Shown in pieces: positions 35,000-58,125 of a stretch of 64,000 nucleotides of DNA. Source of the DNA: Acidobacteriota bacterium (GTDB lineage Bacteria > Acidobacteriota > Vicinamibacteria > Vicinamibacterales > UBA2999). The notes under the pieces were generated by a model. The model was given only the letters and a program-made list of their open reading frames with translations, searched no databases and had not been told where the DNA came from. The stretch's first letter is position 1; each line of letters opens with the position of its first letter. The stretch covers positions 13,128 through 77,127 of the forward strand of contig JADZBZ010000167.1 of the NCBI GenBank assembly GCA_020851835.1, given 5' to 3'. The translations under genes and the position numbers were made by a program.

Positions 35000-35071
35000 G
35001 ACCCGGACTGCCGGTTGCCGCAAGGTCGGAAGAAGGTCGAATCGTCTGTGCGACGAACCGCTCGCATGCAG

Positions 35072-35100: not shown

Positions 35101-35179
35101 AAAGTGGTCGGCCTTGGCGGCGGCCCGCGCCGCCTCCGGGTGCGCGCCCACGGCGCGCGCACCCGGCCACGCCGGTTCG

Positions 35180-39205: not shown

Positions 39206-39302
39206 TCTTAGGTCGAGGTGTGAACGGCTCGTCTGGGCGGAGCCGGGCATCGCGCGCGATTGCCGGCTGCCTCAACTGGACGCGCCTTTGGAGGAGAGAA
39301 AC

Positions 39303-44802: not shown

Positions 44803-44831
44803 AGCGAACGCGGTCTTGGTGAGGTGAACAC

Positions 44832-45437
44832 GTGTCCATTCGACCATTCATGGCCCTCATCGCGATCCCTGGACTGCTGGCAGGCTGCGCGCGCGATCCT
44901 GGCCGGGACGTCCAGCCGATCTCCCTCACGGGAAACGATGTCACTGGCGCGGGATCGTCGTCCGAGATCCTTCCACTCGACCAGGTCCGGAAGAGCCAAG
45001 CCGCGGCGGTGGCCCAGCGCGTCGCGAACACGCAGATTACCGTGACTTACAGCCGTCCCCTGGCTCGCGGGCGGGCATTGTTCGGCCAGCTCGTGCCGTA
45101 CGACCAGGTCTGGAACCCTGGCGCCGATCAGGCCACGGCCGTGCAGTTCAGCCGGGACGTCCAGGTTGCCGGCCACTTACTCGTAGCCGGGAAGTACAGC
45201 CTCTGGATGATTCCGCGCGCCGGGCGCTGGACGGTCATTTTCAATCGGGCCGCCGACGTGTACCACACGCCCTATCCCGGGCAGGCGCAGGACGCGCTGC
45301 GGCTCGACGTCGAACCGGGCGACGGTCCCGAGACGGACGTCCTCACCTTCGACTTTCCACTGGTCGACGGCAAGGAGGCAGTGTTGCGGCTGCACTGGGG
45401 GACGGTCACCGTGTCCGTTCCCGTCGTCGTGCCGTAG
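44832..45437 (+). CDS. DUF2911 lipoprotein
   Basis: Lipobox LLAGC and DUF2911 core ITVTYSRPLARGRALFGQLVPYDQVWNPGADQAT...GKYSLWMIP. Confidence 0.75.
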   Translation: MSIRPFMALIAIPGLLAGCARDPGRDVQPISLTGNDVTGAGSSSEILPLDQVRKSQAAAVAQRVANTQITVTYSRPLARGRALFGQLVPYDQVWNPGADQATAVQFSRDVQVAGHLLVAGKYSLWMIPRAGRWTVIFNRAADVYHTPYPGQAQDALRLDVEPGDGPETDVLTFDFPLVDGKEAVLRLHWGTVTVSVPVVVP

Positions 45438-45505
45438 CGGCCCAGACGCGGCTTGCGCGGGGACCGCACGTCGCGACGCTGGCGGTTGATTCGTCGGCGA
45501 ACGCT

Positions 45506-45534
45506 GTAATGTTTCGATCGACGCGGCCACTCAC
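45506..45534 (+). promoter_or_regulatory. ECF-type promoter candidate, class 1: GTAATG-N16-CACTCAC
   Basis: Read directly: ctGTAATGtttcgatcgacgcggcCACTCACac, about 70 nt upstream of the thioredoxin-family gene. Confidence 0.55.
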
Positions 45535-45601
45535 ACCACGATGCTCCGGCCATCGGCCGGGGCCGCTCAGCGGCCCGAAAGACCCAGAGGAGACACACAT
45601 C

Positions 45602-46018
45602 ATGCTGATCCGCAGCTTCAAGGCCTCCGTGCTCATGGCCGCGTTACTTGTGGCGGGGCACACCGCCGTGTTTGCCCAGGCCACGGACAACAATCCGAAA
45701 CCGTTCTCGCGCGAGGCCTTCGATGCGGCCACGGCGGCAGGCAAGACGGTCATGGTGGCGTTTCACGCGCCCTGGTGCCCGGTGTGCAAGGCCCAGGAGC
45801 CGAAGATTGAAGCGCTGCTGAACACCGAGTACAAGAACGTCGTGGCCTTCAACGTGGACTACGACACCAACGTGCCGCTGCGGAAGGAAATGCACGTCCT
45901 CAAGCAGGCGACGCTCATCATGTTTCGCGGTGACAAGGAAATCGCGCGCCTGAGCTTTCAGAGTGACGACGCCTCGATCCGGCAGTTCTTTGCCCACGCG
46001 AAGACCACCGGCCGGTAG
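45602..46018 (+). CDS. secreted thioredoxin-family protein (WCPVC)
   Basis: Signal peptide, then VAFHAPWCPVCKAQ. ATG after AGAGGAG. Confidence 0.8.
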   Translation: MLIRSFKASVLMAALLVAGHTAVFAQATDNNPKPFSREAFDAATAAGKTVMVAFHAPWCPVCKAQEPKIEALLNTEYKNVVAFNVDYDTNVPLRKEMHVLKQATLIMFRGDKEIARLSFQSDDASIRQFFAHAKTTGR

Positions 46019-46021: not shown

Positions 46022-46732
46022 GTGCTCCGATTGGCCCTCAGTTTCGCCGCAGGCCTGCTGACGGCGTTGTCCCCGTGCGTGCTGCCCGCCCTGCCGATCG
46101 TGGTCGGCAGCGCGGCGGCCAGCCGCCGCCATGGGCCGCTGGCGCTCGCGGCCGGCCTCGTCGTGGCGTTCACCCTCGTCGGCCTGGCCATCGCGTCCGC
46201 CGGTACGTTCTTGGGCATTTCTGAGGACGCGGTTCGGGCAGGCGCCGCCCTCATGCTCGTCGCGGCGGGTATCGTCCTCTTCAGCCATCGTCTGCAGGAT
46301 GCGCTGAGCCGACGTCTATCGCCGATCGCGTCCGCGGCCGCGCGCGCCACGACGCGGGTCGGCGACGGCCTCGCCGGACAGTTTGCCGTGGGGGCGATGC
46401 TCGGGGCCGTTTGGAGTCCGTGTGTCGGGCCGACGCTCGGCGCGGCCATCGGCCTCGCGGCGTCCGGCCATTCCGCGGGATGGGCCGCGGCGCTGATGTT
46501 GGCCTTCGGTCTGGGTTCGGCGGCTCCGCTGCTGGCGATTGCCTATTTCTCGAGACGCATGATCGCGAGGCGCGGTCGGTTGATCTCCCTGGCTGAACGT
46601 GGCAAGCCGCTGTTCGGCGGAGCGCTCGTGCTGATGGGAGCGCTGGTGTTCCTGGGTGTGGACAAGGTGATTGAAGCCGCCGTGCTGGCGAGGCTGCCGC
46701 AATGGTGGATCGACCTCCTTGCGAGCGTGTAG
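46022..46732 (+). CDS. ccdA: cytochrome c biogenesis CcdA / DsbD-core thiol-disulfide transporter
   Basis: FAAGLLTALSPCVLPALP and GAVWSPCVGPTLGAA, the two conserved membrane Cys motifs. Confidence 0.85.
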   Translation: MLRLALSFAAGLLTALSPCVLPALPIVVGSAAASRRHGPLALAAGLVVAFTLVGLAIASAGTFLGISEDAVRAGAALMLVAAGIVLFSHRLQDALSRRLSPIASAAARATTRVGDGLAGQFAVGAMLGAVWSPCVGPTLGAAIGLAASGHSAGWAAALMLAFGLGSAAPLLAIAYFSRRMIARRGRLISLAERGKPLFGGALVLMGALVFLGVDKVIEAAVLARLPQWWIDLLASV

Positions 46733-46735: not shown

Positions 46736-47908
46736 TTGTCGGCGGCTGCCACGGGCGCGCATTCATCCCGGACGTCAGACGTGACTCGCGACATCGTGCT
46801 GCTCGGTCTCGGCCACACCAACGCCGAAATCGTCCGCCGATGGCGCCGGAGGCCGTTTCGCGACGCCCGGCTCGTCTGCGTATCGGATAGCGCTTCTGCC
46901 GCGTACTCGGGCATGCTGCCGGCGGTTCTGGCTGGGCAGTGTCCGCCCGAACGGATGCGGATCGATCTCGCGCGCCTCTGCAAGGCGGCCGGCGCGGAGT
47001 TGGTCGTCGGATGCGCAATCGGGCTTGACGTCGCGCGGCGCCAACTCATCATGGACGGCTCCGCACCGGTCCGGTTCGACGTGCTGTCCATCGGTGTGGG
47101 GTCGGTCCCGACCGTGGCCGGCGTCGTCGTTGCCGACGCCAGGCCCTATATTCCGGTCAAACCCATGCGCACTCTGCTGTCCCGGCTCATCGCACGATTC
47201 GATCGGGTCGTGGATTCGTTCCGGCCGCAGACCGTCCGCGTTTCGATTGTCGGCGGAGGCGCCGGCGGGGTGGAACTGGCGCTGTGCATCGCGCCCTTCA
47301 TTCAGGCCACCTACCCGCGGCTGTCGGACGTCGGCGTGACGATCGTGACAGCCGACGGCGATCTTTTGCCCGGCGGCCTCCCGCGGACGCGTGAGCGCCT
47401 CGCTCGGATTCTGCGCGCGCGCCGCGTCCAGGTGGAGCGAAATGCTCGCGTGGTCAGGATCGACTCGGAGGGCGTGTCGCTCGAAGATGGCCGGACCCTT
47501 CAGAGCGACGCGGTCATATGGGCGACCGGTGCGGCTCCCCCACCTGTGCTCTCGACCTTTGGCCTTCCGGTGGACGACGCCGGATTCTTGCGCACGCGCA
47601 GTACTCTGCAGGTAGTGACCGGGGATCCGGTTTTCGCCGTGGGTGACACGGGCAGCATTGACGGCGCGGTGATGCCCAAGGCCGGTGTGTATGCGGTCCG
47701 GCAGGGGCCGCTGTTGTGGGAGAACCTCCGGCGCGCGCTCGATGGCCGGCCGCTGCGGCCGTTCGTGCCCCAGCCCGGGTTTCTCCGACTGCTCAACACC
47801 GGGGACGGACGAGCCCTGGGAGACTGGCGCGGGTGGTCCTTCGAGGGGACCTGGGTTCGGGTCTGGAAGGACATGATCGACCGCCGTTTCGTCGCGAGAT
47901 ATCAGTGA
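46736..47908 (+). CDS. FAD-dependent pyridine nucleotide-disulfide oxidoreductase, TIGR03169-like (family often fused N-terminally to SelD)
   Basis: NDH-2-like two-Rossmann layout (IVLLGLGHTNAE, VSIVGGGAGGVE, VFAVGDT). Confidence 0.65.
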   Translation: MSAAATGAHSSRTSDVTRDIVLLGLGHTNAEIVRRWRRRPFRDARLVCVSDSASAAYSGMLPAVLAGQCPPERMRIDLARLCKAAGAELVVGCAIGLDVARRQLIMDGSAPVRFDVLSIGVGSVPTVAGVVVADARPYIPVKPMRTLLSRLIARFDRVVDSFRPQTVRVSIVGGGAGGVELALCIAPFIQATYPRLSDVGVTIVTADGDLLPGGLPRTRERLARILRARRVQVERNARVVRIDSEGVSLEDGRTLQSDAVIWATGAAPPPVLSTFGLPVDDAGFLRTRSTLQVVTGDPVFAVGDTGSIDGAVMPKAGVYAVRQGPLLWENLRRALDGRPLRPFVPQPGFLRLLNTGDGRALGDWRGWSFEGTWVRVWKDMIDRRFVARYQ

Positions 47909-47952
47909 TGCAAGTGGGCCTGCCGCCCATGTCGTCCGTGTCGGGCGACCAT

Positions 47953-49305
47953 TCAGGGCTGGTCTCTCAGCCGCGCGTACACGGCATCCCGTACGCCGCC
48001 CGCGTTGACCTGGCACATCGGGACCATCTCGCCGTCGACGGGCACGCGGAGCACGCACGCTGACAGCCGTTCCTGTCCCGTTGCGGTGCCCAGTTCCGCC
48101 GGGCTCATGAAATGGTGCGAGACCACGGCGAAGCTGTCGATTCTCACGCGGCCTCGCGCAAGGTTCCACGCCAGACGCGAGCCGCTGGTCTCGAGGGCGG
48201 CGAGCCGACCGACCACCCAGCGACGCAGGGGGCCGAGCGTCCACGCCGGGTCCGTCAGCAGAATTCCCATCGCCCGACACGCGCGTTCCAGGGGCCTGTC
48301 GTCGCGGAAGTTGAGGCCACCCAGGCCGCGGTTCAGGAACGCGCGCATCATGTCAACGTCCGTTTCGTCGTCGCGCAGGATCGGAAAGACGCGCGGATCG
48401 CTTCCCGCGCGCTCATAGACGCCGAGGAGCTCGAGCCGCGTGCAGTCGGGATGGCCGAACGTGATCGCACGCGGCCCGCGGCGAACGAGACCGAAGCGCG
48501 CCAGGACCGGCTCGATCCGGTCCCACAGCTCCTGGACCGTCACGGCCTGCAGGCCCTTCTCCGTCCGGCCCACGCGCGCGACCGGCTGGAACGATAACAT
48601 CCCGAAGACATCGCGATTCCGCAGGCACCACTCGACGACAGGCGGCACGTCGTCGAGGTTGTCGCGCGTGATCGTCAACGTCGTGGCGGCACGAAGCGAC
48701 AGGCCCGTGGCGGTCCGCGCGGATCGAATCATGGCCGCGCACTCCTCGCGGAGCGGCGTCAACATGGTTTCGTCCGCCGGTCGCTTGTAGCCGAGTCGGC
48801 CGCGCTGCGTCGTGTCGATGTGGATCGACACCTCCGTCAGACCGGCCTCCGCCATCAGCCGCTCGAGCAGGCCGGGCCGGCGGCGGAACGTGTCGCCGTG
48901 AGTCATTACCATCGGGATGAGACCAATCCGGCGAGCGTGGCGGATATTCGCCGCGAGATCCTCAGTGGGCAGGAGCGTGACTTCGCCGTCCGTGATCTGC
49001 ACGTTGCCTTTCGGTCCGAGCCACGCCCGGAGCCGATCGAGCTGCTGGAATACTTGTTCGCGGCTGGCAGGCGGGATGCGGTTGGCTTCCTCTCCCAGGT
49101 AGCAACCCGTACAAGCGAAGTCGCAGCGAGGCTGGATCCCGATGGTCGCGCCACATCCGGTGGCCTGCTGTCCGAAGCCCTGTCCCGGCGTGCGCCACCG
49201 CGGGTCGAGCGAGGCCCACTGCTCGCGCAGCAGCCGTCTCTTTTCGTCCGGCACCGGCGACCTGAGGAGACGCAGCGCATCGATCAGCCGTGGCTTGCCG
49301 CTCAT
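47953..49305 (-). CDS. radical SAM protein, unassigned subfamily (~450 aa)
   Basis: IQPRCDFACTGCY (CxxxCxxC) near the N-terminus and a large C-terminal extension ending ...MVPMCQVNAGGVRD. Start set at MSGKPRL (49305), ATGA-overlapping the upstream gene. Confidence 0.7.
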   Translation of the reverse strand: MSGKPRLIDALRLLRSPVPDEKRRLLREQWASLDPRWRTPGQGFGQQATGCGATIGIQPRCDFACTGCYLGEEANRIPPASREQVFQQLDRLRAWLGPKGNVQITDGEVTLLPTEDLAANIRHARRIGLIPMVMTHGDTFRRRPGLLERLMAEAGLTEVSIHIDTTQRGRLGYKRPADETMLTPLREECAAMIRSARTATGLSLRAATTLTITRDNLDDVPPVVEWCLRNRDVFGMLSFQPVARVGRTEKGLQAVTVQELWDRIEPVLARFGLVRRGPRAITFGHPDCTRLELLGVYERAGSDPRVFPILRDDETDVDMMRAFLNRGLGGLNFRDDRPLERACRAMGILLTDPAWTLGPLRRWVVGRLAALETSGSRLAWNLARGRVRIDSFAVVSHHFMSPAELGTATGQERLSACVLRVPVDGEMVPMCQVNAGGVRDAVYARLRDQP

Positions 49306-49877
49306 CGCGGCGCCCCGCTCCGACGCACCGTCAGCAGCGTCCCAATCGACGGCCGATCGGCCGGTCCCGATCCGCGGTGAAGCAGTCTGACGATGCCCGA
49401 CGGATCCACGAGAACGTCTCCGCCGAGTTGATAGATGTCGTTGGCCAGGGCCGACGCTCGAGGCGTGCGCCCTCGGAACAGCTCCTTGATATATGCCCAA
49501 CAGGTGCGCGGCCCCCAGACATTCCACCGCGTGCCGAGAAACATGCCGCAGGCGGCATACAGCGTCCGCGTCTCATCGATGACAACCGGCCAGTCGAAGC
49601 CCATTTCGCGCACCCACGCGTCCGCGACCGGGCCTCCCATGAACGACACCACGACAATCTGGACATCGAGGTCTTGAAAGATCCGCTCGGAATCTTTCAG
49701 ATCGAGGAGGTGTCGGCGGCACGGCAGGCACCCCAGGTGCCGATGGAACACGAGCAGCAGCCAATGTCCGCGATAATCCTCGAGGCGACGCACCTGGCTT
49801 TGGGCGTCCGGAAGCTCGAACGGCGGGGCCTGACCTCCAACGACGGCGTGTGGCGGCTCCGGCGTCACCGCCGCCAC
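49302..49877 (-). CDS. peroxiredoxin-like (PRX_like2 / AhpC-TSA family) protein
   Basis: APPFELPD...WLLLVFHRHLGCLPCRRH thioredoxin-fold CxxC motif. GTG start. Confidence 0.7.
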   Translation of the reverse strand: MAAVTPEPPHAVVGGQAPPFELPDAQSQVRRLEDYRGHWLLLVFHRHLGCLPCRRHLLDLKDSERIFQDLDVQIVVVSFMGGPVADAWVREMGFDWPVVIDETRTLYAACGMFLGTRWNVWGPRTCWAYIKELFRGRTPRASALANDIYQLGGDVLVDPSGIVRLLHRGSGPADRPSIGTLLTVRRSGAPR

Positions 49878-51403
49878 CGGAGCACCGCCCGAAGCACCGC
49901 ACGAAGGCGAGGCGTCAACCGCGAGCGATTCCAGGCATCCCCGAGTCGTTTCCAGGCCTCGGATTGTGTCGGATACGGATGGATCGTCAGCCCGATTGAG
50001 CCCATGCGAACGCCGGCTCGCATGGCGACGACCATCTCGCCGATCAGCTCGCCCGCATGGCCCGCGACCATCGTCGCGCCCAGGATCGCGCCCGTGCGCC
50101 GATCGACGTGCACCCGCGCGAATCCCTCGGCGTCGTCATCCAGGATGGCGCGGTCATTCTCGGACAGCTCCACCGTCAAGGTGCTCACCGCGTCGCCCCG
50201 TTGCTCCGCATCCCCCGCGGACAGGCCCACGTGCGCCACTTCGGGATCGGTGTACGTCGCCCACGGCACGACCAGCGCGCTGGCTCTCTTGCGGCCGAAG
50301 AACAGGGCATTCTGCAAGACGATGCGCGCCATGGCGTCGGCCGCATGCGTGAACTTGTGGCGCGAACAGATATCCCCAGCGGCGTACACCCGGCGATTGG
50401 TGGTGCGCAGAAAATCGTCCACGATGACGCCGGCCGCGTGCCAGGCAACGCCGCCGGCGGCCAGATCTAGATCCTCGACGTTCGGGCTCCGCCCGACCGC
50501 GACGAGAATCTCGTCGCCTGCGACCTCGCCCTGCGCCCCGCTGGCCTCATACACCAGCACGCGCGGCTGATCGCCGGCACGCCGCTCGGCACGCAGAATC
50601 GTCGCGTGCCGTATCAGCGTGACCCCTTCGCGAAGGAGCGTCCGCTCCACGATGGCGGACGCGTCGGCGTCGTCGCGAGGCAGCAGACCGCCCCCGCGGA
50701 GAATCAAGGTAACCGCGCTGCCAAGGCGACGGAACGTCTGAGCCAGTTCGCAGCCAATCGGACCGGCGCCGATCACGAGCAGGTGGCGGGGTCGTTCGGT
50801 CAGCGAGAAGATCGTCTCATTCGAGTAGAAGCCCGTCTCGGCCAACCCCGGAACGTCAGGGACGGTCGGCCGCGCGCCCGTGGCGATCACGGCCCGGCTG
50901 AATTTCAGCGTCTGGTCGCCCACGGCCACCGCATCACCCTGAATGAAGCGAGCGTCGCCGAGGTACACGTCGACACCGAGGCTGGCCAGTCGCCCGACGG
51001 AGTCGTTTTTCGCGATCCCGGCACGCAATCGTCGCATGCGGGCCATGACCGCCGCGAAATCGACCGGATCGGGAGCGGGCGCGGCACCGATCCCGAACCG
51101 GCCGGCACTCCGCACGCCCGCCGCCGCCCGCGCCGCGCTGATTAGCGCTTTCGACGGAACGCACCCGAAGTTGAGGCAGTCGCCGCCCGTGAGATGACGC
51201 TCGACGATGGCAACCTTCGCGCCAAGGGAGGCGGCGCCGACCGCCGAGACCAAGCCGGCCGTGCCGGCGCCCAGGACGACGAGGTTGTAGCGCCCGGTCG
51301 GTGTGGGATTGACCCAGTCCGCGGGGTGCGCGTATCCCACGAGCGTTCGGTTGTGCTCGTCATCGGGAGCCACGAGCGACTGAGAAGGCGATGGGGGCGT
51401 CAT
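49865..51403 (-). CDS. MerA-like FAD-dependent disulfide oxidoreductase (no metal-binding N-domain, no C-terminal CC)
   Basis: YNLVVLGAGTAGLVSA, redox GGDCLNFGCVPSK, and a dimerisation domain ending HPYPTQSEA. Confidence 0.8.
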   Translation of the reverse strand: MTPPSPSQSLVAPDDEHNRTLVGYAHPADWVNPTPTGRYNLVVLGAGTAGLVSAVGAASLGAKVAIVERHLTGGDCLNFGCVPSKALISAARAAAGVRSAGRFGIGAAPAPDPVDFAAVMARMRRLRAGIAKNDSVGRLASLGVDVYLGDARFIQGDAVAVGDQTLKFSRAVIATGARPTVPDVPGLAETGFYSNETIFSLTERPRHLLVIGAGPIGCELAQTFRRLGSAVTLILRGGGLLPRDDADASAIVERTLLREGVTLIRHATILRAERRAGDQPRVLVYEASGAQGEVAGDEILVAVGRSPNVEDLDLAAGGVAWHAAGVIVDDFLRTTNRRVYAAGDICSRHKFTHAADAMARIVLQNALFFGRKRASALVVPWATYTDPEVAHVGLSAGDAEQRGDAVSTLTVELSENDRAILDDDAEGFARVHVDRRTGAILGATMVAGHAGELIGEMVVAMRAGVRMGSIGLTIHPYPTQSEAWKRLGDAWNRSRLTPRLRAVLRAVLRWRR

Positions 51404-51418
51404 TGGCCTGTACTGGGT

Positions 51419-52261
51419 TCAGTCATCATCGTGGGATCGGCCCTCGATATGGGTCCCACCTGGGTAAATGACGTTACGGCTCGCTCCGTCGTTCAAGAAG
51501 CGCGCAATCGCTTCCGCTGTCGAGTCCGGATGTTCCAGTAGCATCAAGTGCCCACCCGGCAGCATCGCGTTGTGCACGTTGGGCTGTATGATCGCCCGCC
51601 GCGAGAGCTCGGCGTCGCCACATCCCGTCAGATTGAGAATCGGCACGTTCCCGATCGCCCTGACCAGGGCAGCGCCTGGAACGCCCAGGAGGACGCGGTC
51701 GAAGGTCTCCGCGATCGCGCGCCAGCGATGCGCCGTGTAGTCGTCGAAGACCTCGTCGGGGACGTACGCCGGCTTGGCGAAATAAAATGCCCGAATAACC
51801 TGCGCGCCCCTCAGGACGACACACGCCAGATGCGCCATGCGGCGATGGTTGAGCAGAACGGCGCCCCAACCGAAACGGTCGTGCAGCAGTTGGCGCCTGA
51901 TGTCATCACGGTTCTCGCCAAGAGGCGTGTTGATTAAGACGATCCACGACACACGATCTCTGTGGTGAACCGCCCACGCAAGGGCCAGCACGCCACCGAG
52001 CGAATGGCCGACAAGGGCGAGCGGCCCTGACGGGAAGCGCCGTTCGATCGTGCCGGTGATGAAGTTCAGCTGGTCGCCGACGTCGTAGCGGCTTTCGACG
52101 TCCTTGTTCTCGCCGAAGCCGGGCAGATCGAAGGAGAGTGTGTCCGCGCTCGTCGGCGGCCGCCGCAGGCGACCCTCGAGTCCGGCAAAGAGACGCTTTG
52201 AGCCCGTGAGCCCGTGGATCAGCACGATCTGTGACGGAGACATAGCTTGAGAGTTGTCCAT
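51419..52261 (-). CDS. alpha/beta hydrolase
   Basis: IVLIHGLTGS and nucleophile elbow LVGHSLGG. Confidence 0.75.
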   Translation of the reverse strand: MDNSQAMSPSQIVLIHGLTGSKRLFAGLEGRLRRPPTSADTLSFDLPGFGENKDVESRYDVGDQLNFITGTIERRFPSGPLALVGHSLGGVLALAWAVHHRDRVSWIVLINTPLGENRDDIRRQLLHDRFGWGAVLLNHRRMAHLACVVLRGAQVIRAFYFAKPAYVPDEVFDDYTAHRWRAIAETFDRVLLGVPGAALVRAIGNVPILNLTGCGDAELSRRAIIQPNVHNAMLPGGHLMLLEHPDSTAEAIARFLNDGASRNVIYPGGTHIEGRSHDDD

Positions 52262-52325
52262 CGAGCGTGTCTCCGATGTCTCGGACTAATGGCGCCCGCT
52301 CGCGTGGCCGGCGCGGTCATTGAGG

Positions 52326-52772
52326 CTAGGACCCGAGGACCTTGGCGGTTTCCGGCGCGGCGCCGACTGCTGGCTCGTCGGGCCAGCGGTCCACCGCCTT
52401 CGGTCGCGCAGGCGAAACGCTTCCCAGCGCCTCACGGACTGCCTGTGCCGAGATACGGAAGTGCGACGCATGCCAGAGCGCGGCTCCGCGGTGGAGGATC
52501 AGAGCCTGTGGCGACTCGTGCCGGACGCGCAGGATCCTGGCGATGGCGTGGGAGACGGGCCTGTGCGGGTGGACCAGCACCATGAAGACGTCGGTCTCGA
52601 GCGACGGGTCACCCCGCAACTCCGCGATCTCCTCCAGCGCCAGGGCACTGACGCCGCACGTCGAGCTGTGCTTGAAGATGACGACCGGCCGCGTGAAGGA
52701 CCGCTTGAGGGCGCTGTCAAGAGCGGCCAGGTCTGGCAGCAACGGTGGCGCCTCAATGGTGCCGTGCATCAT
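52326..52772 (-). CDS. YtxJ-like (DUF2847) monothiol thioredoxin-fold protein
   Basis: PVVIFKHSSTCGVSALA, the T/S-C-x-x-S monothiol motif typical of YtxJ. Start at MMHG; 4-nt overlap with the DUF547 stop. Confidence 0.6.
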   Translation of the reverse strand: MMHGTIEAPPLLPDLAALDSALKRSFTRPVVIFKHSSTCGVSALALEEIAELRGDPSLETDVFMVLVHPHRPVSHAIARILRVRHESPQALILHRGAALWHASHFRISAQAVREALGSVSPARPKAVDRWPDEPAVGAAPETAKVLGS

Positions 52773-53668
52773 TCTCTCCCGTTCAGCGACCAGTCGTACT
52801 CCAGGTAGGCGATCCGCGGCGGCGTGCCCGCCAACGCGCCGGCCATCGCTGGAGGCGCGTACCGGGCGACAAATTGCGGGACGGTCCCCGCGGCGCGCTC
52901 GAAGTCCTCCCGGTACCACCTGAAGATCGAGGACAGGCGCAGTGTTCGTGACGCTGCGTCCCACTGGTTCTTCGACGTGTCCGCCAGAAATCGCCGTGCC
53001 GCGTCGTCGAGCTCGGCGTCGAGCACGTCCGCGCGGTAGGCCTCGGACCGAAGCGCCGGACAGCCCTTTGATGCACAGACGAGCGCAAAGTGCACGCGCG
53101 GGTCCGCGAACTGGGTGCGTAGCACGTCATTCTCGATCGTGTTCAACGAGATCTTCTTGCCGTCGGCGCCAAGCGGGATGAAGCTCTTACGGAACGCGGC
53201 GTACGGCAGAAACCCGATCGAGCGAATGCTCTTCAGCGGGTAGTGATCGAGGACCAGGCGAACCGTAAACGCGTTGTAGGCATTGATCCAGTACGCCATC
53301 CGCTCCGGCCGAGTCCAGCCCCGCTCGTCCGGGACTGCCGCAGCGAGAGCGTCAAGATAGACATCCAGAGCGGGTTGTCCGCGCTGGAGGAGACCCTCGT
53401 AGTCGACGCCGCCGCTCGAATCGTATGTGGCGAGAATCGCCGTCCAGGCGCGATGCTCGTGATCGAAGGGCTCAACCTGCGCGGTCGTCGGTGGTTGTGC
53501 AGCGCTCTGCGCGCCGCTGAACGAGCGCGCATCACGCGATGGCGTGGCCATGGCGATCGATACCAAGCCGAGAAGGACCGCAGCGAAGCCGTATCGGACG
53601 GCCGGTGGGGCTTCCCGGAGGGCTGCGCGGCAGTCCGCGCACCCTCGGCCGATGTCGTGGTCACCCAT
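52769..53668 (-). CDS. DUF547 domain protein (membrane-anchored/secreted)
   Basis: YWINAYNAFTVRLVLDHYP...HFALVCASKGCPAL...YDWSLN hallmark blocks. Start uncertain (53668 or 53725). Confidence 0.8.
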   Translation of the reverse strand: MGDHDIGRGCADCRAALREAPPAVRYGFAAVLLGLVSIAMATPSRDARSFSGAQSAAQPPTTAQVEPFDHEHRAWTAILATYDSSGGVDYEGLLQRGQPALDVYLDALAAAVPDERGWTRPERMAYWINAYNAFTVRLVLDHYPLKSIRSIGFLPYAAFRKSFIPLGADGKKISLNTIENDVLRTQFADPRVHFALVCASKGCPALRSEAYRADVLDAELDDAARRFLADTSKNQWDAASRTLRLSSIFRWYREDFERAAGTVPQFVARYAPPAMAGALAGTPPRIAYLEYDWSLNGRE

Positions 53669-53687
53669 ATCGACAGCCCGTGGCCGC

Positions 53688-54131
53688 TCAGGCGTGCGCC
53701 ACGCGCACCTCGACGCCCCCCGCAATGGCGCCCAGCAGGCCGCCGTAGATCAAATGTCCGACGAGCGATCCCATGGCCGCCATGGCGCCGCCCATCTGGC
53801 TGCTGAACAGGCCGGCACCCATCATCGGCATCACGACCACCTGCGCCATGAGCCAAAGCCCCACGCCCCAGATGGTGCCCTTGACCGCCGGCGAACCCGG
53901 CAGCACGCCATACAGCCCGAAGGCGAAGATCGCCGGGAAGATCAGCGAGCCGTTGACGAAGTGCATCACCATGCCGGCCGACCAACTGTTGCCCAGCATC
54001 GATCCGAGCATGGCCGCGATGTCCATGTGAAGGCCCATCATGGGGGCCACGAGGTACATCATGGCCGTCATTGCCAGCGTGCCGAGGAAGCCGCCGAGGA
54101 TCGCGCGTGAGAAGTGTGGATGTGTCTGCAT
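53688..54131 (-). CDS. small 4-TM membrane protein (paralog of 31126-31608)
   Basis: Met-rich TM protein sharing HFVNG / GHLIYGGLLG blocks with 31126-31608. Confidence 0.55.
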   Translation of the reverse strand: MQTHPHFSRAILGGFLGTLAMTAMMYLVAPMMGLHMDIAAMLGSMLGNSWSAGMVMHFVNGSLIFPAIFAFGLYGVLPGSPAVKGTIWGVGLWLMAQVVVMPMMGAGLFSSQMGGAMAAMGSLVGHLIYGGLLGAIAGGVEVRVAHA

Positions 54132-54199
54132 GGTATCTCGCTCCGGTCAGGTGTCGCCCGCGCGCCGCCGTGCGGCGTCCCACGCGCTGGCTCTACAAC

Positions 54200-54228
54200 G
54201 TGTGTGAGCGGTAGGCGGCCGGCATTAC
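54200..54228 (-). promoter_or_regulatory. ECF-type promoter candidate, class 1 (one mismatch): GTAATG-N16-CACACAC
   Basis: Minus-strand reading is ctGTAATGccggccgcctaccgctCACACACgt, about 70 nt upstream of 54131 and just downstream of the DoxX stop. Confidence 0.4.
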
Positions 54229-54239
54229 AGCGGATGCCG

Positions 54240-54707
54240 TCAGCCGCTCGTCCGAGTACGGGGTGCGGCTGACCCGCGCAGGAATCGGCGGGCGATCAGG
54301 TGATCGAGCGACACCGCGCCCGGCCCACGGATCAACAGAAACAGCAGAATCGAGGCCCACACCAAGTGCTCGTTCCAGGCGTTGGGATACACAAAGGTCT
54401 GGATTACTGCGATCATGCCGAGGAGCGGCAGCGTGGCGATTCGTGTCGCCAGGCCCACGAACAGGAAGATCGGGAACGTCAGTTCCTGCGTCATCGCGAT
54501 CCGAGCGGCGACGGCCGGATCCAGTAGTGGCACCTTGTACTCGTCGCGGAACAGGAGCAGCGTCATCTGCCAGGAGTGATACTTGATCAGGCCGGCGTTG
54601 AAGAACACCGCGCCGACGGCGATGCGCATCGACAGTTGGATGAGCGAGAGCGGAAAGCGCTCGAGCCGACGACGACCTGCCATGACGAGTCTAGCGATGG
54701 ATCTCAC
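54240..54707 (-). CDS. DoxX-family membrane protein (bufferin-cluster associated)
   Basis: RIAVGAVFFNAGLIKY...LPLLGMIAVIQ DoxX pattern. Start may be the internal ATG at 54683. Confidence 0.8.
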   Translation of the reverse strand: MRSIARLVMAGRRRLERFPLSLIQLSMRIAVGAVFFNAGLIKYHSWQMTLLLFRDEYKVPLLDPAVAARIAMTQELTFPIFLFVGLATRIATLPLLGMIAVIQTFVYPNAWNEHLVWASILLFLLIRGPGAVSLDHLIARRFLRGSAAPRTRTSG

Positions 54708-55488
54708 AAGTGTCCTCCGAAGCGGCGGTGAGGATTGACGTGACCAGGTCGTCGGTAAACAGGGCGGTGAGCGCGCGACCGGGGTCGAAGGAGTCGTCCC
54801 GATCGAGCGCGCAATCGGCAGCTTCGCCCAGTGGAATCGCCGCGTGGACGCCCTGCCGAAACAGGAACTCCGATTCGGACAGACGCGCGAAGTCGAACTG
54901 TCCGCGCGCGCCCCGCACCTGCAGCCAGATGTGCTCCGGCTCGAGCACCAGGTGCTCCGGCGCGGTGTCGGTCAGATACAGCCGCATCAGGTTGTCGATC
55001 GGCCACGCCGCCTTGAGATAGTCCAGGCCTGGTTGGAGTCGGAGCCGGACTGCCGTCATCGCGTCCGCCTCCAGCGCGGCGAAGACATCGAACGTCACAG
55101 CCGGCGTCTCGACCTCGATGCTGACCTTCCCCAACTGCCAGTCCAGCGCAGCGAAGTCACCGGCGTACGGCACGTGCGCCAGCTCCGACCAGCCGGAAAG
55201 CCAGGGAGGAAACGTCTCGCCGTACTCTGCCAGGCATGGCGCCGTTGGAGGGCATGCCTTGATGAAGATGCGGGCCGCCTCGATGAGCAAAGGCGAGCCC
55301 AGCAGCCAAGCCGTAGCCGGAAAGCGCCGGAGCAGTCCCTTGACCAGACTGGTCTCGTAGTGGCGATGATGGATCGCGAGCCGTCGCCAGCCATCTCCTT
55401 GGCCAGCCACCAGAGACACGTTCTCGAGGGCGTCGCGGCCGAGGACGATGGCGTCGCGCACGCGTTGCTGCAGCTCAGCGAGCGACAT
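54691..55488 (-). CDS. bufC: DUF2063 protein (BufC-type partner of the DUF692 enzyme)
   Basis: LAELQQRVRDAIV...LAIHHRHYETSLVKGLLRRFPATAWLLG, the DUF2063 N-terminal pattern. It overlaps the DUF692 gene 3' end. Confidence 0.75.
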   Translation of the reverse strand: MSLAELQQRVRDAIVLGRDALENVSLVAGQGDGWRRLAIHHRHYETSLVKGLLRRFPATAWLLGSPLLIEAARIFIKACPPTAPCLAEYGETFPPWLSGWSELAHVPYAGDFAALDWQLGKVSIEVETPAVTFDVFAALEADAMTAVRLRLQPGLDYLKAAWPIDNLMRLYLTDTAPEHLVLEPEHIWLQVRGARGQFDFARLSESEFLFRQGVHAAIPLGEAADCALDRDDSFDPGRALTALFTDDLVTSILTAASEDTCEIHR

Positions 55489-56341
55489 GGGGTGCCCCTT
55501 GGGCCGCCTGTCGGGCCAACACGCTCGCCAGGGTGGCCTCGTCAAGCAGATCGGCGAAGCTGGGCAGGTCGTCGTCCCACTCGATCAGCGTGGGCTTGGG
55601 ACCAAAGCGCCGCAGCGCGTAGGTGTAGAGACGCCACGCCTCGTCGGCAATGGCCGTGTCGTGGGTATCGACCAACACGCGGGTTCCAGCGTCAGGATCG
55701 TCTTCGCTCTGAAATCCGCCCAAGTGCAGTTCCCCGATGGCCTCCGCCGGCAGGCCGTCTAGGTAGGCCCGGGCGTCGTACCCGAGGTTCTCGGAGCTGA
55801 CGTAGACGTTGCTCACGTCGCACAGCAGCCGGCAGCCCGTCCGCCGGACCAGCTCGCCCAGGAACTCGACCTCGGTCATGGTGGATGTGCCGAACCCGAA
55901 ATAGCTCGACGGGTTCTCGACCAGAAAAGGCCGGCCGAGGCCGTCCTGGACTTGGTGCAAGTGCATCGCTAGGAGGTCCAGCGTTTCGTCGTCGTACGGC
56001 AACGGCAGGAGGTCGTTGAGGTACTCGCCTCTGTGGGTCGACCAGGCGAGATGCCCCGAGACGAGCACCGGATTCACGAGATCGATGAGTTCCCGGATTC
56101 GGGCGACGTGCGCCCAGTCCACGCCGCTGGCGCTGCCGATCGACACGCCGACGGTGTGAACGGAAATCGGATAGTCCCCGGCGAGCTGCAGCAGCAACTC
56201 GAAGGCGTGTGGATTCGCCAGGAAGTTTTCCGGATGGATTTCCAGCCAGCCGGCTGGCGGGCGGGTGGCCACCACTTCCGAGAGATGCGGAAGCCGTAGT
56301 CCGACTCCTGCGCGTGAGAGCATCTGGTGAGTTCGGGACAT
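55475..56341 (-). CDS. bufB: DUF692 / MNIO-family multinuclear non-heme iron oxidase (BufB-type)
   Basis: GVGLRLPHLSEVV...WLEIHPENF...VSGHLAW...FLVENPSSY...IGELHLGG, the DUF692 TIM-barrel blocks. Start at MSRTHQ. Confidence 0.85.
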   Translation of the reverse strand: MSRTHQMLSRAGVGLRLPHLSEVVATRPPAGWLEIHPENFLANPHAFELLLQLAGDYPISVHTVGVSIGSASGVDWAHVARIRELIDLVNPVLVSGHLAWSTHRGEYLNDLLPLPYDDETLDLLAMHLHQVQDGLGRPFLVENPSSYFGFGTSTMTEVEFLGELVRRTGCRLLCDVSNVYVSSENLGYDARAYLDGLPAEAIGELHLGGFQSEDDPDAGTRVLVDTHDTAIADEAWRLYTYALRRFGPKPTLIEWDDDLPSFADLLDEATLASVLARQAAQGAPHVAR

Positions 56342-56375
56342 GGTGGCCACCCTTTCGACGGAGGAACGCCGCGTC

Positions 56376-56642
56376 TTACTTGGGGCTCGTGCTGCCGCCG
56401 ACGATCCGAGTGCAGTAGCCCGCCGGAACGTAAATCCAGGCTTTCGGATCGCTGTTCCTCTTCGATGTGCCGCCGCACGAGTTGTTGCCCTCCGAGGCGC
56501 AGTCGTTCTGGCCGGCCTTGGCGATGCCGTAACACTTCTCGGCCTTGAAGCTCGGCATCTCCGCCGGCTTTTGCGCCCACAGGATGCTCGGCGCGGCCGC
56601 GGCCGCAGCGAACGCCGACGCGATGACAAAACGCTTGTTCAT
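56376..56642 (-). CDS. bufA: DUF2282 bufferin-type RiPP precursor (BufA1-like)
   Basis: 88 aa. Sec signal MNKRFVIASAFAAAAAAPSILWA, then a core with four Cys: EKCYGIAKAGQNDCASEGNNSCGGTS...YVPAGYCTRI. Confidence 0.85.
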   Translation of the reverse strand: MNKRFVIASAFAAAAAAPSILWAQKPAEMPSFKAEKCYGIAKAGQNDCASEGNNSCGGTSKRNSDPKAWIYVPAGYCTRIVGGSTSPK

Positions 56643-56702
56643 ACGTGCCTCCCCATTTGGCCGGCGATCCGGGCTTATCCCGAAGAACTCGGCCACATCC
56701 GT

Positions 56703-56731
56703 GTGAGTGCAGGCCGCGGGGCGGACATTAC
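56703..56731 (-). promoter_or_regulatory. ECF-type promoter candidate, class 1: GTAATG-N16-CACTCAC
   Basis: Minus-strand reading is ctGTAATGtccgccccgcggcctgCACTCACac, about 60 nt upstream of bufA. Confidence 0.6.
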
Positions 56732-56752
56732 AGGCCCGGGAGGACCACGGCT

Positions 56753-56781
56753 GTAAGGTTTGCCGGTCAACCGGCACTCAC
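56753..56781 (+). promoter_or_regulatory. ECF-type promoter candidate, class 1: GTAAGG-N16-CACTCAC
   Basis: Read directly: ctGTAAGGtttgccggtcaaccggCACTCACta, about 85 nt upstream of trx-sigma2. It is back-to-back with the bufA promoter, 21 bp between the -35 elements. Confidence 0.6.
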
Positions 56782-56867: not shown

Positions 56868-57242
56868 ATGCAGTCTTCTTCCTCCGTGGCCGCAGCCGCG
56901 GCCGAGACGTTTGATGACGTGGTCCTGGGCGGCGACCGGCCTGTTGTCGTAGACTTCTGGGCGCCTTGGTGCGGCCCGTGCCGGCGCTTCGCGCCGATCT
57001 TTGAGGCCCTGGCTGCGGAATTGCGCGATCGCCTCGACTTCGTCAGCGTCAACGTGGAGGCAGAGCCCGCTCTTGGCGACCGGCTGCAGATCTTCAGTAT
57101 TCCGACCCTGAAACTCTTTCGCGCGGGGCGCGAGGTCGCGAGCCAGGTCGGCGCGGGCACGAAGGATCAGACGAGAGCGACCCTCGAGCAGTGGCTCGCT
57201 GCGCGGCCCCAGGACGAGCCCGCGCCAGTCAGCCGGCCCTGA
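56868..57242 (+). CDS. trxA: thioredoxin (WCGPC)
   Basis: [18 protein letters not shown]...IPTLKLF. ATG after AGGAGAGG. Confidence 0.85.
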
Positions 57243-57310
57243 TGTGGTCGGTCGGAACGCCGCTCTTGCCCACGACAGTTCGATCGGCGGCCGAGCTTCC
57301 TCTCTATGAT

Positions 57311-57889
57311 ATGGGTGTGACGGATCCGCTGGCTCGGCTGCGGCGCCGCGAACCGGCGACGCTCCACGAGATCGTGCATCAGAACACGCGGCGTTTGTTC
57401 CGGGCGGCCCAAGGCATGGGCTTCTCCTCGGCCGAGGCGGACGATCTCGTCCAGGATGTCTTCGTGACGTTCCTGGAGACGCTCGATCGCTTCGAGGGCC
57501 GATCGCAGGTCAGTACGTGGCTGTTCGGTATCCTGCACCACAAGGTACAGGAGCGGCGCCGGTCGCGGGCGCGCGACGACCTGCACGATCCGGTCGACGA
57601 GCTCTTTGAGTCGAAATTCGACGCGAAGGGGAAGTGGATCGCGCCCCTGCCGTCGCCGGACCGTGTGGCCTCCTCGGCACAGGCGGCCGGCGCGATCGCG
57701 GACTGCCTCCAGGGTTTGCCGCCCCTGCACCGTGAGGTGTTCCACCTCCGTGAAGTTGAGGAACTGTCCGCGGCGGACGTCAGTAATATCATCGGCCGCA
57801 CCGTCACTCACGTAGGAGTGCTGTTCCATCGCGCGCGCCTTCGACTGCGCGAGTGCCTGGACGGCAAAGGCTGGAGTCCACCGCGATGA
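57311..57889 (+). CDS. ECF (group 4) sigma-70 factor 2
   Basis: Region 2 ADDLVQDVFVTFLETLDRFEGRSQVSTWLFGILHHKV and region 4 LPPLHREVFHLREVEELSAADVSNIIGRTVTHVGVLFHRAR. The linker architecture is like sigma 1. Confidence 0.85.
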   Translation: MGVTDPLARLRRREPATLHEIVHQNTRRLFRAAQGMGFSSAEADDLVQDVFVTFLETLDRFEGRSQVSTWLFGILHHKVQERRRSRARDDLHDPVDELFESKFDAKGKWIAPLPSPDRVASSAQAAGAIADCLQGLPPLHREVFHLREVEELSAADVSNIIGRTVTHVGVLFHRARLRLRECLDGKGWSPPR

Positions 57890-58125
57890 TGTCGTGTAAA
57901 CAGGTGTCCACGCTGATGTCCACGGGAGGGCTCGCCGACGCGCCGCTCAGGCAGCGCCTCGCCGTGCGTCTGCACCTGATGATGTGCGACAAGTGTTCGA
58001 CGTTCAAACGCTGGCTGGAACTGATGGGCGTGGCCGCGCGCGCGGAGAGCCACGCCCACGAAGACGAGGCGCCCGCGGACCTCGAAGCGCGCACGCTGCG
58101 GCGCCTCGAGCGGTCGCAGCTGTAA
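57886..58125 (+). CDS. soluble ZAS (zf-HC2) anti-sigma factor 2
   Basis: MMSCKQVSTLMSTGGLADAPLRQRLAVRLHLMMCDKC has the N-terminal Cys plus H-x3-C-x2-C. 79 aa, no TM segment, ATGA overlap with the sigma 2 stop. Confidence 0.7.
   Translation: MMSCKQVSTLMSTGGLADAPLRQRLAVRLHLMMCDKCSTFKRWLELMGVAARAESHAHEDEAPADLEARTLRRLERSQL

Follow-up and report, generated by a model that had tools for sequence, protein, structure and literature searches.

A radical SAM enzyme of predicted Tes-like fold and an exported DUF547 protein form the conserved core of a thiol-redox gene string beside arsenic genes in an acidobacterium

The stretch of DNA analysed here, hereafter the window, comprises 64,000 nucleotides (nt) of an Acidobacteriota bacterium of the Vicinamibacterales (assembly GCA_020851835.1, contig JADZBZ010000167.1, positions 13,128 to 77,127), with a guanine-plus-cytosine (GC) content of ~67%. 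Our subject is a string of seven co-directional open reading frames (ORFs) on its minus strand, spanning 47953-54131, which encodes an enzyme of the radical S-adenosylmethionine (SAM) type, a DUF547 protein and several redox proteins. An earlier note on this DNA, made from the letters and translations alone, had read the string as a dedicated thiol-dependent pathway around the radical SAM enzyme. The ORFs and families that it named are all borne out by the translations and profile matches, and each of the motifs that it quoted (STCG, GHSLGG, CLNFGC, CLPC and CDFACTGC) is present. Starting from the first gene of the string, the content is as follows (lengths in amino acids, aa).

53688-54131, minus strand: DUF6789 Met-rich membrane protein, 147 aa (PF20587, 49.1 bits)
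52769-53668 (or to 53725), minus strand: DUF547 protein (PF04784, 97.2 bits against a Pfam gathering score of 27)
52326-52772, minus strand: YtxJ/BrxC-type monothiol redoxin of the thioredoxin fold, ~148 aa when read from the ATG at 52772 (PF11009; TIGR04019, 93.9 bits, cutoff 77.25), with SSTCG
51419-52261, minus strand: alpha/beta hydrolase, 280 aa (PF00561, PF12697), with GHSLGG
49865-51403, minus strand: NAD(P)H/flavin adenine dinucleotide (FAD) pyridine-nucleotide disulfide reductase (NF004991, 722.7 bits against 620, full length), with CLNFGC
49302-49877, minus strand: SelL-related CxxC redoxin (PRX_like2 / AhpC-TSA_2), 191 aa (NF040769, 156.9 against 120), with CLPC
47953-49305, minus strand: radical SAM enzyme, 450 aa, with PF04055 as its sole Pfam domain and CDFACTGC

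The ORF coordinates agree with the tight packing reported earlier. The DUF547 and YtxJ genes overlap by 4 nt (ATGA), the reductase and SelL-like genes by 13 nt, and the SelL-like and radical SAM genes by 4 nt, whereas gaps of 64 and 15 nt separate YtxJ from the hydrolase and the hydrolase from the reductase; the DUF6789/DUF547 junction is, according to the start codon chosen, a gap of 19 nt or an overlap of 38 nt. A scan for intrinsic terminators across 47700-54400 returned nothing above shuffled sequences. As also described previously, the string is convergent with, and adjacent to, a block of ars, thioredoxin, CcdA and TIGR03169 genes, the stop codons of the radical SAM and TIGR03169 genes lying 44 nt apart; the 86-nt convergent gap between the two folds no better than shuffles (z -0.53), and the whole window gave no Rfam match.

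Relatives of the radical SAM enzyme were collected in two sets. One genome per GTDB species was scanned, yielding 232 confirmed relatives, of which the best 80 loci, all from Acidobacteriota (Thermoanaerobaculia, Holophagales and Vicinamibacterales), were analysed; neighbours in these genome loci were counted with a tblastn panel and by independent ORF clustering, in agreement with each other. The second set consists of 80 metagenome loci of 38-75% GC, from a scan seeded with distant family members (39-47% identity to P0136). The neighbours in the genome set were the following.

DUF547 protein: 70/80 loci, of which 57 have it directly upstream on the same strand, with a median gap of 20 nt
GpgS-like family 2 glycosyltransferase (GT2): 51/80 by the tblastn panel, 41 by ORF clustering, upstream of DUF547
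Inosine-uridine (IU) nucleoside hydrolase: 38/80, mostly convergent downstream
FAD reductase: 5/80, in variable position
Alpha/beta hydrolase: 1/80 (L006)
YtxJ, SelL-like and DUF6789 proteins: 0/80

Among the metagenome loci, DUF547 adjoins the radical SAM gene in at least 56 of the 80, and the stop and start codons of the two often overlap; 62 of the loci extend 1 kb or more upstream. A TIGR04283-like GT2 gene lies immediately 3' of the radical SAM gene in seven of them, and the other neighbours include the FAD reductase (8 loci), VTT (8), TIGR04282 (7), MauE (6), IU-nucleoside hydrolase (4), ArsS (3) and ArsM (2). Furthermore, an all-against-all search of representatives uncovered three fusions of the radical SAM enzyme with DUF547 (P0154, P0269 and P0204), in which the DUF547 half retains its hydrophobic, lipobox-like segment as a linker, and a sister subfamily of radical SAM enzymes from KSB1, Chlorobi and Thermoanaerobaculia likewise adjoins DUF547 (L090, L091 and L092). 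Fusions to GT2 occur as well, both in P0132, which is 45% identical to the window enzyme, and in P0259 of the sister subfamily, where the GT2 half qualifies as a true TIGR04283 with 230 bits (cutoff 182). DUF547 is thus the obligate partner of the radical SAM enzyme, be it adjacent, overlapping or fused, a relationship that the earlier note had overlooked.

The arrangement of all seven genes is a different matter. Had the string been conserved as a whole, its order should recur in relatives; it does not, which counts against a seven-gene unit, but not against its core. The closest relatives, with ~73-76% identity of the radical SAM enzyme, display the following arrangements (FADred, FAD reductase; rSAM, radical SAM enzyme).

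L004 and L007: DUF547-rSAM alone
L006: hydrolase-DUF547-FADred-rSAM
L088: VTT-DUF547-FADred-SelL-like-rSAM, with a BrxC/YtxJ gene, two redoxins and DsbD divergent
L173: DUF547-FADred-AhpC_TSA_2-rSAM::Lon_C

The order DUF547-FADred-SelL-like-rSAM is hence kept in two relatives, L088 and L173 (~75% identity), so that, of the trio of radical SAM, PRX_like2 and MerA-like proteins singled out in the earlier note, the link of the reductase and the SelL-like redoxin to the radical SAM enzyme stands, whereas YtxJ, DUF6789 and the hydrolase are not conserved partners. The SelL-like gene of L088 encodes a protein with 62% identity and holds the same position as in the window, and the nearby YtxJ copy on the opposite strand is 57% identical to that of the window. 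A small ORF of ~140 aa found upstream of DUF547 in relatives was considered as a counterpart of DUF6789, but has no BLASTP similarity to it and represents the C-terminal half of a split-called GT2. Two further arrangements are worth recording. In close relatives of the window organism (L173, 11014-13092; P0048), the radical SAM enzyme is fused at its C-terminus to the C-terminal domain of Lon protease (Lon_C/Lon_lid) in a protein of 692 aa, and in an acidobacterial metagenome-assembled genome (MAG; L002/L010, 12341-17182) two genes for B12-binding radical SAM enzymes and one resembling asparagine synthase come after an IU-nucleoside hydrolase-rSAM-DUF547 group.

This distribution bears on the possibility that the string is no functional unit, but the DUF547-radical SAM pair plus unrelated redox and hydrolase genes packed by chance in this one genome. 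Consistent with chance packing, YtxJ and DUF6789 genes are found beside the radical SAM gene in 0 of the 160 scanned loci, the hydrolase occupies a string-like position in L006 alone, SelL-like genes occur in L088 and L173 alone, and the two relatives L004 and L007 carry the bare pair. However, the 4- and 13-nt overlaps, the lack of an internal promoter or terminator in the scans, the placement of both the reductase and the SelL-like gene between DUF547 and the radical SAM gene in L088 and L173, and the recurrence of the reductase with the pair in six radical SAM clades all point the other way, and we consider chance packing very unlikely. Overall, what is conserved is a core of two proteins, a cytoplasmic radical SAM enzyme of the Tes fold and an exported DUF547 protein, whose genes are translationally coupled and in some cases fused; in the window lineage four cytoplasmic genes (FAD reductase, SelL-like, YtxJ and hydrolase) are inserted between the two.

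The window DUF547 protein starts with a hydrophobic signal or anchor sequence and carries the motif HFALVCASKGCP (C-x4-C-P). An N-terminal hydrophobic signal sequence is present in 125/139 DUF547 partners, with a lipobox in 39 of those 125, and the H-F-A-x-x-C-x4-C-P / C-x4-C-P motif is found in 172/172 partner copies. To judge from these signal sequences, the protein works outside the cytoplasm. Its AlphaFold model (predicted local distance difference test, pLDDT, 86.9) retrieved no fold match from the PDB with Foldseek (best E 0.85, template modelling (TM) score <0.25). In the searchable literature, DUF547 receives passing mentions only, mostly in plant papers and with no function assigned, and nowhere together with 'radical SAM', in keeping with the previous statement that no system of such composition had been described; the preprint by Haft does not discuss a DUF547-linked radical SAM family either. 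The individual families are known singly, but neither the module of DUF547 and a Tes-fold radical SAM enzyme nor its fusions, nor its links with the ArsS system and with a VTT-reductase pair, are described in that literature.

The earlier note could not place the radical SAM enzyme in any named subfamily, and profile matches alone leave it far from all of them. The best NCBIfam matches, to Tes (NF045702, 59.5 bits against a cutoff of 450, residues 53-265) and to TrsS (NF045646, 52.1 against 490), cover the core only, the ArsS model TIGR04167 (cutoff 300) gives no match at E <= 0.01, and beyond PF04055 there is neither a SPASM (PF13186) nor a B12-binding (PF02310) domain. The fold search is more informative. 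An AlphaFold (AF2) model built from a 61-sequence alignment (pLDDT 92.7; predicted TM score, pTM, 0.92) matched the GDGT-MAS structures 7TOL/7TOM first when searched against the PDB with Foldseek (E 1.7e-14, TM 0.59/0.54, 446 aligned columns, 18-19% identity); the next match had a TM score of 0.36, with DesII, MoaA, NifB and others at ~0.3-0.4. A profile search of PDB sequences retrieved 7TOL only, in an alignment that includes the C-terminal HFM...C...C region. On the strength of the predicted model, the enzyme is placed in the Tes/GDGT-MAS structural clade, yet it is not Tes, nor is it ArsS or TrsS.

The likeness to Tes, the sole full-length structural match, extends from the radical SAM core to the C-terminal domain. 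The enzyme aligns with the FQP...GR loop of Tes, which in Tes binds 5'-deoxyadenosine (5'-dAH; PMC9433317), and in the 7TOL alignment residues S396-H397-H398-F399-M400, C417 and C431 pair with C-M-H-F-M, 'RCC' and 'PFC' of Tes. Besides the CX3CX2C motif (C61/C65/C68), H285 and M430, all of them essentially invariant across 162 family members, residues C51, C288, C417, C431, H397, H398 and M400 are kept in 160-162 of the 162. This pattern suggests that the enzyme holds the SAM cluster and a single auxiliary iron-sulfur site that would be equivalent to the catalytic [Fe4S4]C of Tes, which is bound by three Cys and a labile Met. Charged and polar side chains predominate among the invariant residues of the family (R141, R142, H136, D138, H162, D164, R170, R334 and D336).

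The differences from Tes are equally clear. Tes is built of four domains, among them one with a rubredoxin-like Fe site (C9X2C12X20C33X2H36) and one whose N-terminal [Fe4S4] cluster is held by C73, C77, C80 and a His (PMC9433317). Both of these domains are lacking in the window enzyme, in which ~50 residues and one cysteine (C51) precede CX3CX2C and alignments start at Tes profile position ~88 and PDB chain position 104. The position of the labile Met439 of Tes appears to be an invariant His, as read from the alignment on the assumption of a 20-residue tag offset, and neither the obligate exported DUF547 partner nor the GT2 fusions have a counterpart in the Tes system as described (PMC9433317). 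It might be argued that the enzyme is nevertheless a bacterial Tes orthologue making membrane-spanning lipids of the branched glycerol dialkyl glycerol tetraether (brGDGT) type in Acidobacteria, given that the best NCBIfam, structural and PDB sequence matches are all Tes/GDGT-MAS, that the host is an acidobacterium and that JGI labels the sister protein P0496 'tetraether lipid synthase'. However, the score (59.5 bits against 450), the 18-19% identity compared to the 32-42% that acidobacterial Tes homologues share with archaeal Tes (PMC8941075; bioRxiv 10.1101/2022.04.07.487437), the two absent metal domains and the exported partner make such orthology extremely unlikely. In the sister subfamily (P0427, P0468, P0496 and P0508), some JGI names read '7,8-dihydro-6-hydroxymethylpterin dimethyltransferase' or, for P0496, 'tetraether lipid synthase', names probably carried over from MJ0619/Tes. 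Such names could contaminate surveys of Tes homologues, and surveys of brGDGT synthesis in Acidobacteria need to exclude the DUF547-linked family.

TrsS is the second-best NCBIfam match, and members of the sister subfamily (P0259, P0269 and P0232) align with it more extensively, P0259 nearly over the full length with 96-100 bits; the window enzyme itself falls far below the cutoff, and TrsS figures in the searchable literature as a table entry only, without functional information (PMC13188914). ArsS resembles the window enzyme in being a radical SAM enzyme encoded beside a GT2 in a common neighbourhood, with TIGR04283 fused to the sister radical SAM enzyme, but the window enzyme lacks the SPASM/DUF3641-type Cys-rich tail as well as the TIGR04167 match, and most members of its family are not beside ars genes.

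The FAD reductase of the string had been described as MerA-like, without an NmerA domain and without a C-terminal Cys pair, and this description is accurate: its C-terminus (...RAVLRAVLRWRR) contains no Cys at all and an HMA (NmerA) domain is absent. With 372.6 bits against the MerA model TIGR02053 (cutoff 454), MerA itself was rejected as an identity. The protein shares with the MerA, RclA and glutathione-reductase types the Pyr_redox_2 and dimerisation domains and a CxxxxC redox centre, but scores below the cutoffs of MerA, RclA, glutathione reductase and lipoamide dehydrogenase alike, and belongs to the uncharacterised subfamily NF004991, which travels here with VTT/DedA and DUF547. The reductase recurs with DUF547, with or without VTT and the radical SAM enzyme, in L006, L008, L060, L069, L081, L086, L088, L105, L118, L125, L130, L136, L137, L173 and L174, and in two of these, L086 and L174, the Tes-like radical SAM enzyme is missing, DUF547 in L174 standing beside the reductase alone. 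The tie of the reductase to DUF547 is thus no looser than its tie to the radical SAM enzyme, and DUF547 is the hub, pairing with either of them. Homologues of the window-type DUF547 that are 55-68% identical are found in other phyla. The proposal of a dedicated thiol-dependent pathway with its own reductase pair therefore holds in part: the unit is tight and its promoter motif recurs (see below), but the reductase also goes with DUF547 alone.

The block convergent with the string lies on the plus strand. Its order is ArsM, ArsS, PiT, VTT, TIGR04282, TIGR04283, DUF2911, thioredoxin, CcdA and TIGR03169, with the part from ArsM to DUF2911 at 39288-45437.

39288-40481, plus strand: ArsM, best NCBIfam match arsinothricin-type ArsM (329 against a cutoff of 500)
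~40577-41503, plus strand: ArsS (TIGR04167, 433.7 bits)
~41500-42657, plus strand: PHO4/PiT transporter
~42654-43382, plus strand: VTT/DedA protein
43379-44113, plus strand: TIGR04282
44110-44802, plus strand: TIGR04283 GT2
~45602-46018, plus strand: exported thioredoxin
46022-46732, plus strand: CcdA/DsbD-type membrane electron transporter
46736-47908, plus strand: TIGR03169 FAD oxidoreductase

The 'arsenosugar' gene set (ArsM, ArsS, TIGR04282 and TIGR04283) is thus gathered at 39288-44802, and all of its members pass their cutoffs except ArsM, which scores 122 against a cutoff of 400 with the arsenosugar-type model. An ORF at 41628-43382, taken as a single protein of 584 aa, has no NCBIfam match and is in reality PiT plus VTT in different frames. 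Genes for FBPase, 6-phosphogluconolactonase and glucokinase flank the region both in the window (36597-39119, plus strand) and in the relative L088/L089 (L088, 12821-15355), and this synteny indicates a gain or a loss of the ars block between the sugar genes and the radical SAM string. TIGR03169 adjoins the radical SAM gene in L060 and L105.

Beyond the window, an ArsM/ArsS neighbourhood is shared with at least eight other loci. Arrangements worth noting are the following.

L081: FADred-DUF547-rSAM-MauE-PiT-ArsS::ArsM, single strand
L069: DUF547-rSAM, convergent with genes for a PNP_UDP_1 nucleosidase, TIGR04283 (a true member, 212 bits), FADred, PiT and ArsM
L073: ArsS-DUF547 divergent from GT2-rSAM
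L130: ArsS..VTT-FADred-DUF547-DUF547-rSAM-GT2
L137 and L125 (43-46% GC): DUF547-VTT-FADred-DUF547-MauE-rSAM, followed in L137 by ArsS-like and ArsM genes
L086 (Ca. Binatia): DUF547-ArsM-ArsS-PiT-FADred-TIGR04282-TIGR04283, without a Tes-like rSAM

ArsS/ArsM genes are also carried by L136, alongside L137. The metalloid link proposed in the earlier note accordingly goes beyond mere adjacency in one genome, with ArsS, ArsM, PiT, TIGR04282 and TIGR04283 genes next to DUF547 and the radical SAM gene in L069, L073, L081, L130, L136 and L137, although the chemistry, be it detoxification or biosynthesis and with arsenic or another substrate, remains conjectural. The loci with FAD reductase, VTT/DedA, TIGR04282/TIGR04283, ArsS, ArsM or PiT markers fall into six separate radical SAM sequence clusters, which indicates that the association is recurrent rather than the synteny of a single lineage. 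The ArsS::ArsM protein of L081 (13838-16426) is a fusion of 862 aa with PqqD-like, radical SAM, SPASM and methyltransferase domains.

Some of the neighbours would fit selenium or another chalcogen instead of arsenic, with the enzymes engaged, for instance, in the reduction and radical alkylation of selenide or tellurite derivatives. TIGR03169 (an oxidoreductase of the N-terminal-to-SelD type) and the SelL-related redoxin are selenium-themed by family, the selenoprotein TrsS is among the nearest named radical SAM families, members of the ArsS family may be selenoproteins, and a link to selenite uptake exists for DedA/VTT proteins. However, family names reflect homology and not assays, the genes scanned, both those at 31-58 kb of the window and those of the loci inspected, include no SelD, SelA/B or SenA/B/C-type gene, and the recurrent neighbours are ArsM, ArsS and a phosphate/arsenate-type PiT transporter. 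A chalcogen substrate therefore appears quite unlikely.

The nucleosidases raise another possibility, namely that the radical SAM enzyme, like ArsS, HpnH and MqnE, transfers a 5'-deoxyadenosyl group, here to a metalloid, chalcogen or olefin, after which a nucleosidase would remove adenine and the GT2 would couple the ribose derivative to an acceptor. The IU-nucleoside hydrolase that lies by the radical SAM gene in nearly half of the genome loci is mostly convergent, but stands upstream on the same strand in L010, an independent arrangement, and also occurs in the metagenome set; in L069 its place is taken by PNP_UDP_1, the family of HpnG, and the GT2 is adjacent or fused to the radical SAM enzyme. 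The hopanoid side-chain pathway of HpnH, HpnG and HpnI consists of radical SAM adenosylation, a nucleosidase and a glycosyltransferase, and the triad of radical SAM enzyme, nucleosidase and glycosyltransferase seen in many relatives mirrors, in gene logic, both this route and the proposed steps of arsenosugar synthesis. Yet the window encodes neither an IU-nucleoside hydrolase nor PNP_UDP_1, DUF547 has no counterpart in the hopanoid system, an enzyme isofunctional with ArsS would be redundant in the clusters that already contain ArsS (the window, L081, L130 and L136), the nucleosidase may merely salvage the inhibitory by-product 5'-deoxyadenosine, and the nearest structural relative, Tes, abstracts hydrogen and does not add adenosyl. 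On balance, adenosyl transfer seems unlikely.

A broader alternative is a general modification of envelope lipids or glycolipids, in which a lipid or isoprenoid tail, or a GT2-made lipid-linked sugar, would be the substrate of the radical SAM enzyme and DUF547 would finish or bind the product outside, the module being recruited to varied contexts (ars, carotenoid or stand-alone) as an envelope response to oxidative or thiol stress, without being bound to arsenic in particular. The full-length structural match is, after all, an enzyme that forms C-C bonds between lipid tails, and DUF547 is exported, with a lipobox in some copies. The fused GT2 of P0132 is closest to polyprenyl-phosphate sugar synthases (AglJ, 86.9 bits; PpgS, 58.8 bits), a gene of the GT-C fold (GT87/MptA) follows TIGR04283 in L086, an MMPL transporter lies downstream in nine loci, Omp85 is found in L060 and L091, and VTT/DedA in at least 10 loci. 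Finally, the module takes part in two carotenoid clusters.

L090 (KSB1 MAG), 8146-19726: DUF547 and a TIGR04283::rSAM fusion at the head of lycopene cyclase, two CrtI, CrtB, acyltransferase, glycosyltransferase, CruF-like and desaturase genes
L117 (70% GC metagenome contig), 280-5543: CrtI-CrtB-DUF547-rSAM-TIGR04283

However, the mostly charged and polar invariant residues of the radical SAM family fit a polar substrate as well as a lipid, the GT2 of Thermoanaerobaculia is closest to the soluble GpgS/MpgS with small-molecule acceptors, only two carotenoid contexts stand against ~23 contexts with ars, VTT or FAD reductase genes, and the window string contains no lipid-synthesis genes. Lipid modification of this general kind is hence possible, if doubtful.

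The promoter-like element GTAATG-N16-CACACAC reported at 54200-54228 is present upstream of the string, and a scan of 47700-54400 for sigma-70-like promoters found nothing above shuffles, as had been stated; the element is, however, not isolated. In an extended reading, TGTAATG-N14-CTCACAC (54202-54229, minus strand, ~70 nt before the ATG of DUF6789), it belongs to a motif, TGTAATG-N14-18-CTCAYAY, which occurs in four copies in the window against 0 expected (0 in 100 shuffles), all of them 60-80 nt upstream of a likely start codon.

31621-31652, plus strand: before a haloalkane-dehalogenase-like hydrolase and a second FAD disulfide reductase
45505-45536, plus strand: before the thioredoxin-CcdA-TIGR03169 operon
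54202-54229, minus strand: before the seven-gene string
56701-56732, minus strand: before the bufferin operon

The TGTAATG...CTCAYAY motif has no matches in 172 related loci and is therefore specific to the window genome, so that conservation cannot validate it. The window also contains two genes for extracytoplasmic function (ECF) sigma factors, at 34117-35170 (minus strand) and 57191-58125 (plus strand), each followed by a short anti-sigma ORF with HxxxCxxC of the zinc-binding anti-sigma (ZAS) type (HLLMCRHC and HLMMCDKC in the translations). Similar ECF/zf-HC2 pairs adjoin the DUF547 clusters of L086 and L092. The ZAS-type partners of both sigma factors point to a thiol or metal stress signal, and we infer that the four operons with the common motif form one thiol/metal stress regulon. 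Such an arrangement is reminiscent of SigR-RsrA-type regulons, which likewise combine an ECF sigma factor with a ZAS anti-sigma factor, here with one motif common to four operons rich in thiol-redox genes; the window motif, however, differs from the SigR consensus, and any pairing of it with a sigma factor is conjectural.

The operon directly upstream of the string and a second region that carries the motif have the following content.

54240-56777, minus strand: complete operon of the bufferin type (a copper-related peptide made on ribosomes and modified post-translationally, RiPP), which carries the promoter motif of the string
~56376-56642, minus strand: BufA-like precursor with a signal peptide
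31126-31608, plus strand: membrane protein resembling DUF6789 by eye only, without alignment
31734-32765, plus strand: secreted haloalkane-dehalogenase-like alpha/beta hydrolase
32749-34104, plus strand: FAD disulfide reductase, 451 aa, overlapping the hydrolase and 30% identical to the reductase of the string

The bufferin operon encodes the MNIO maturase BufB (NF050167, 328.7 against 310) and a DoxX/HvfX-like protein, and the gene in the position of BufC/DUF2063 matched no NCBIfam family. Its proximity prompted us to consider a RiPP maturase role for the radical SAM enzyme, which was rejected, since BufB, BufC and DoxX are near the radical SAM gene in 0/80 genome loci and the enzyme has no SPASM domain. 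The region at 31126-34104 (plus strand) resembles a smaller second copy of the theme of the string.

The explanation that we favour, with a probability of roughly 0.4, is that the string constitutes an accessory branch, controlled by thiol stress and with its own reductase chain, of the organoarsenical ArsM/ArsS system next to it. The module would branch from the convergent ArsM/ArsS/PiT/VTT/TIGR04282/TIGR04283 ('arsenosugar') genes and would be transcribed from the common promoter motif, whose probable reader is one or the other ECF sigma factor of the window. The radical SAM enzyme might perform radical chemistry on an intermediate that is made or used by the TIGR04283-type glycosyltransferase, as suggested by the GT2 fusions of both the window and sister families in other organisms. 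The reductase could pass electrons to the SelL-like and YtxJ redoxins and thereby keep cytoplasmic thiol and trivalent-metalloid intermediates reduced, while CcdA and thioredoxin, which belong to the same candidate regulon, would play the equivalent reducing role outside the membrane. A product or carrier would then cross the membrane, for which VTT/DedA and CcdA-thioredoxin are candidate components, to be handled outside by DUF547. The substrate, the reaction and the electron path of the module are all inferred.

Several observations weigh against this arsenic-linked scheme. Within the flanks available, ars, VTT and FAD reductase genes are absent from 73/80 genome loci and from 64/80 metagenome loci, many of these last being short contigs, the module of Thermoanaerobaculia is accompanied by the GpgS-like GT2 and IU-nucleoside hydrolase only, and YtxJ, the hydrolase and DUF6789 are missing from the conserved set. 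The carotenoid contexts of L090 and L117 argue against a strictly arsenic-specific role and for a broader substrate class. The 'arsenosugar' names of TIGR04282 and TIGR04283 derive from gene association and not from assay. With DUF547 outside and the reductase and redoxins inside the cytoplasm, a direct electron relay between them would be topologically awkward. Finally, the bufferin operon, including the DoxX gene whose stop lies at 54240, is also on the minus strand, 108 nt upstream of the string, so that, as a correction to the earlier note, read-through from these genes into the string may occur.

A bolder version of the favoured scheme would see the Tes-fold radical SAM enzyme and the exported DUF547 protein as a trans-membrane two-component pathway to a novel class of lipids or glycoconjugates that contain a metalloid, in which the auxiliary cluster might, for instance, form a C-As (or C-S/C-Se) bond on a lipid or lipid-linked sugar; we regard it as a long shot. 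To our knowledge, the steps that follow ArsS in organoarsenical biosynthesis, as well as the origin of arsenolipids, are still open. If true, the metalloid-lipid pathway would supply the missing step from arsenosugar to arsenolipid and the first biochemical function for DUF547.

For DUF547, which is widespread in bacteria and plants, an obligate and sometimes fused radical SAM partner provides the first testable handle on function, and a Tes fold that lacks two of the four metal domains and operates outside lipid-tail coupling is of direct interest for radical SAM enzymology. In the uncultured acidobacterium, the motif shared by four operons joins the string, a periplasmic thioredoxin-CcdA system and a copper-binding RiPP (bufferin) operon in a candidate thiol/metal stress regulon. 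Among the unexplained companions of ArsM/ArsS found here, the DUF547-radical SAM module, together with the VTT-reductase pair, is the most consistent, and its genes are candidates for steps of organoarsenical synthesis.

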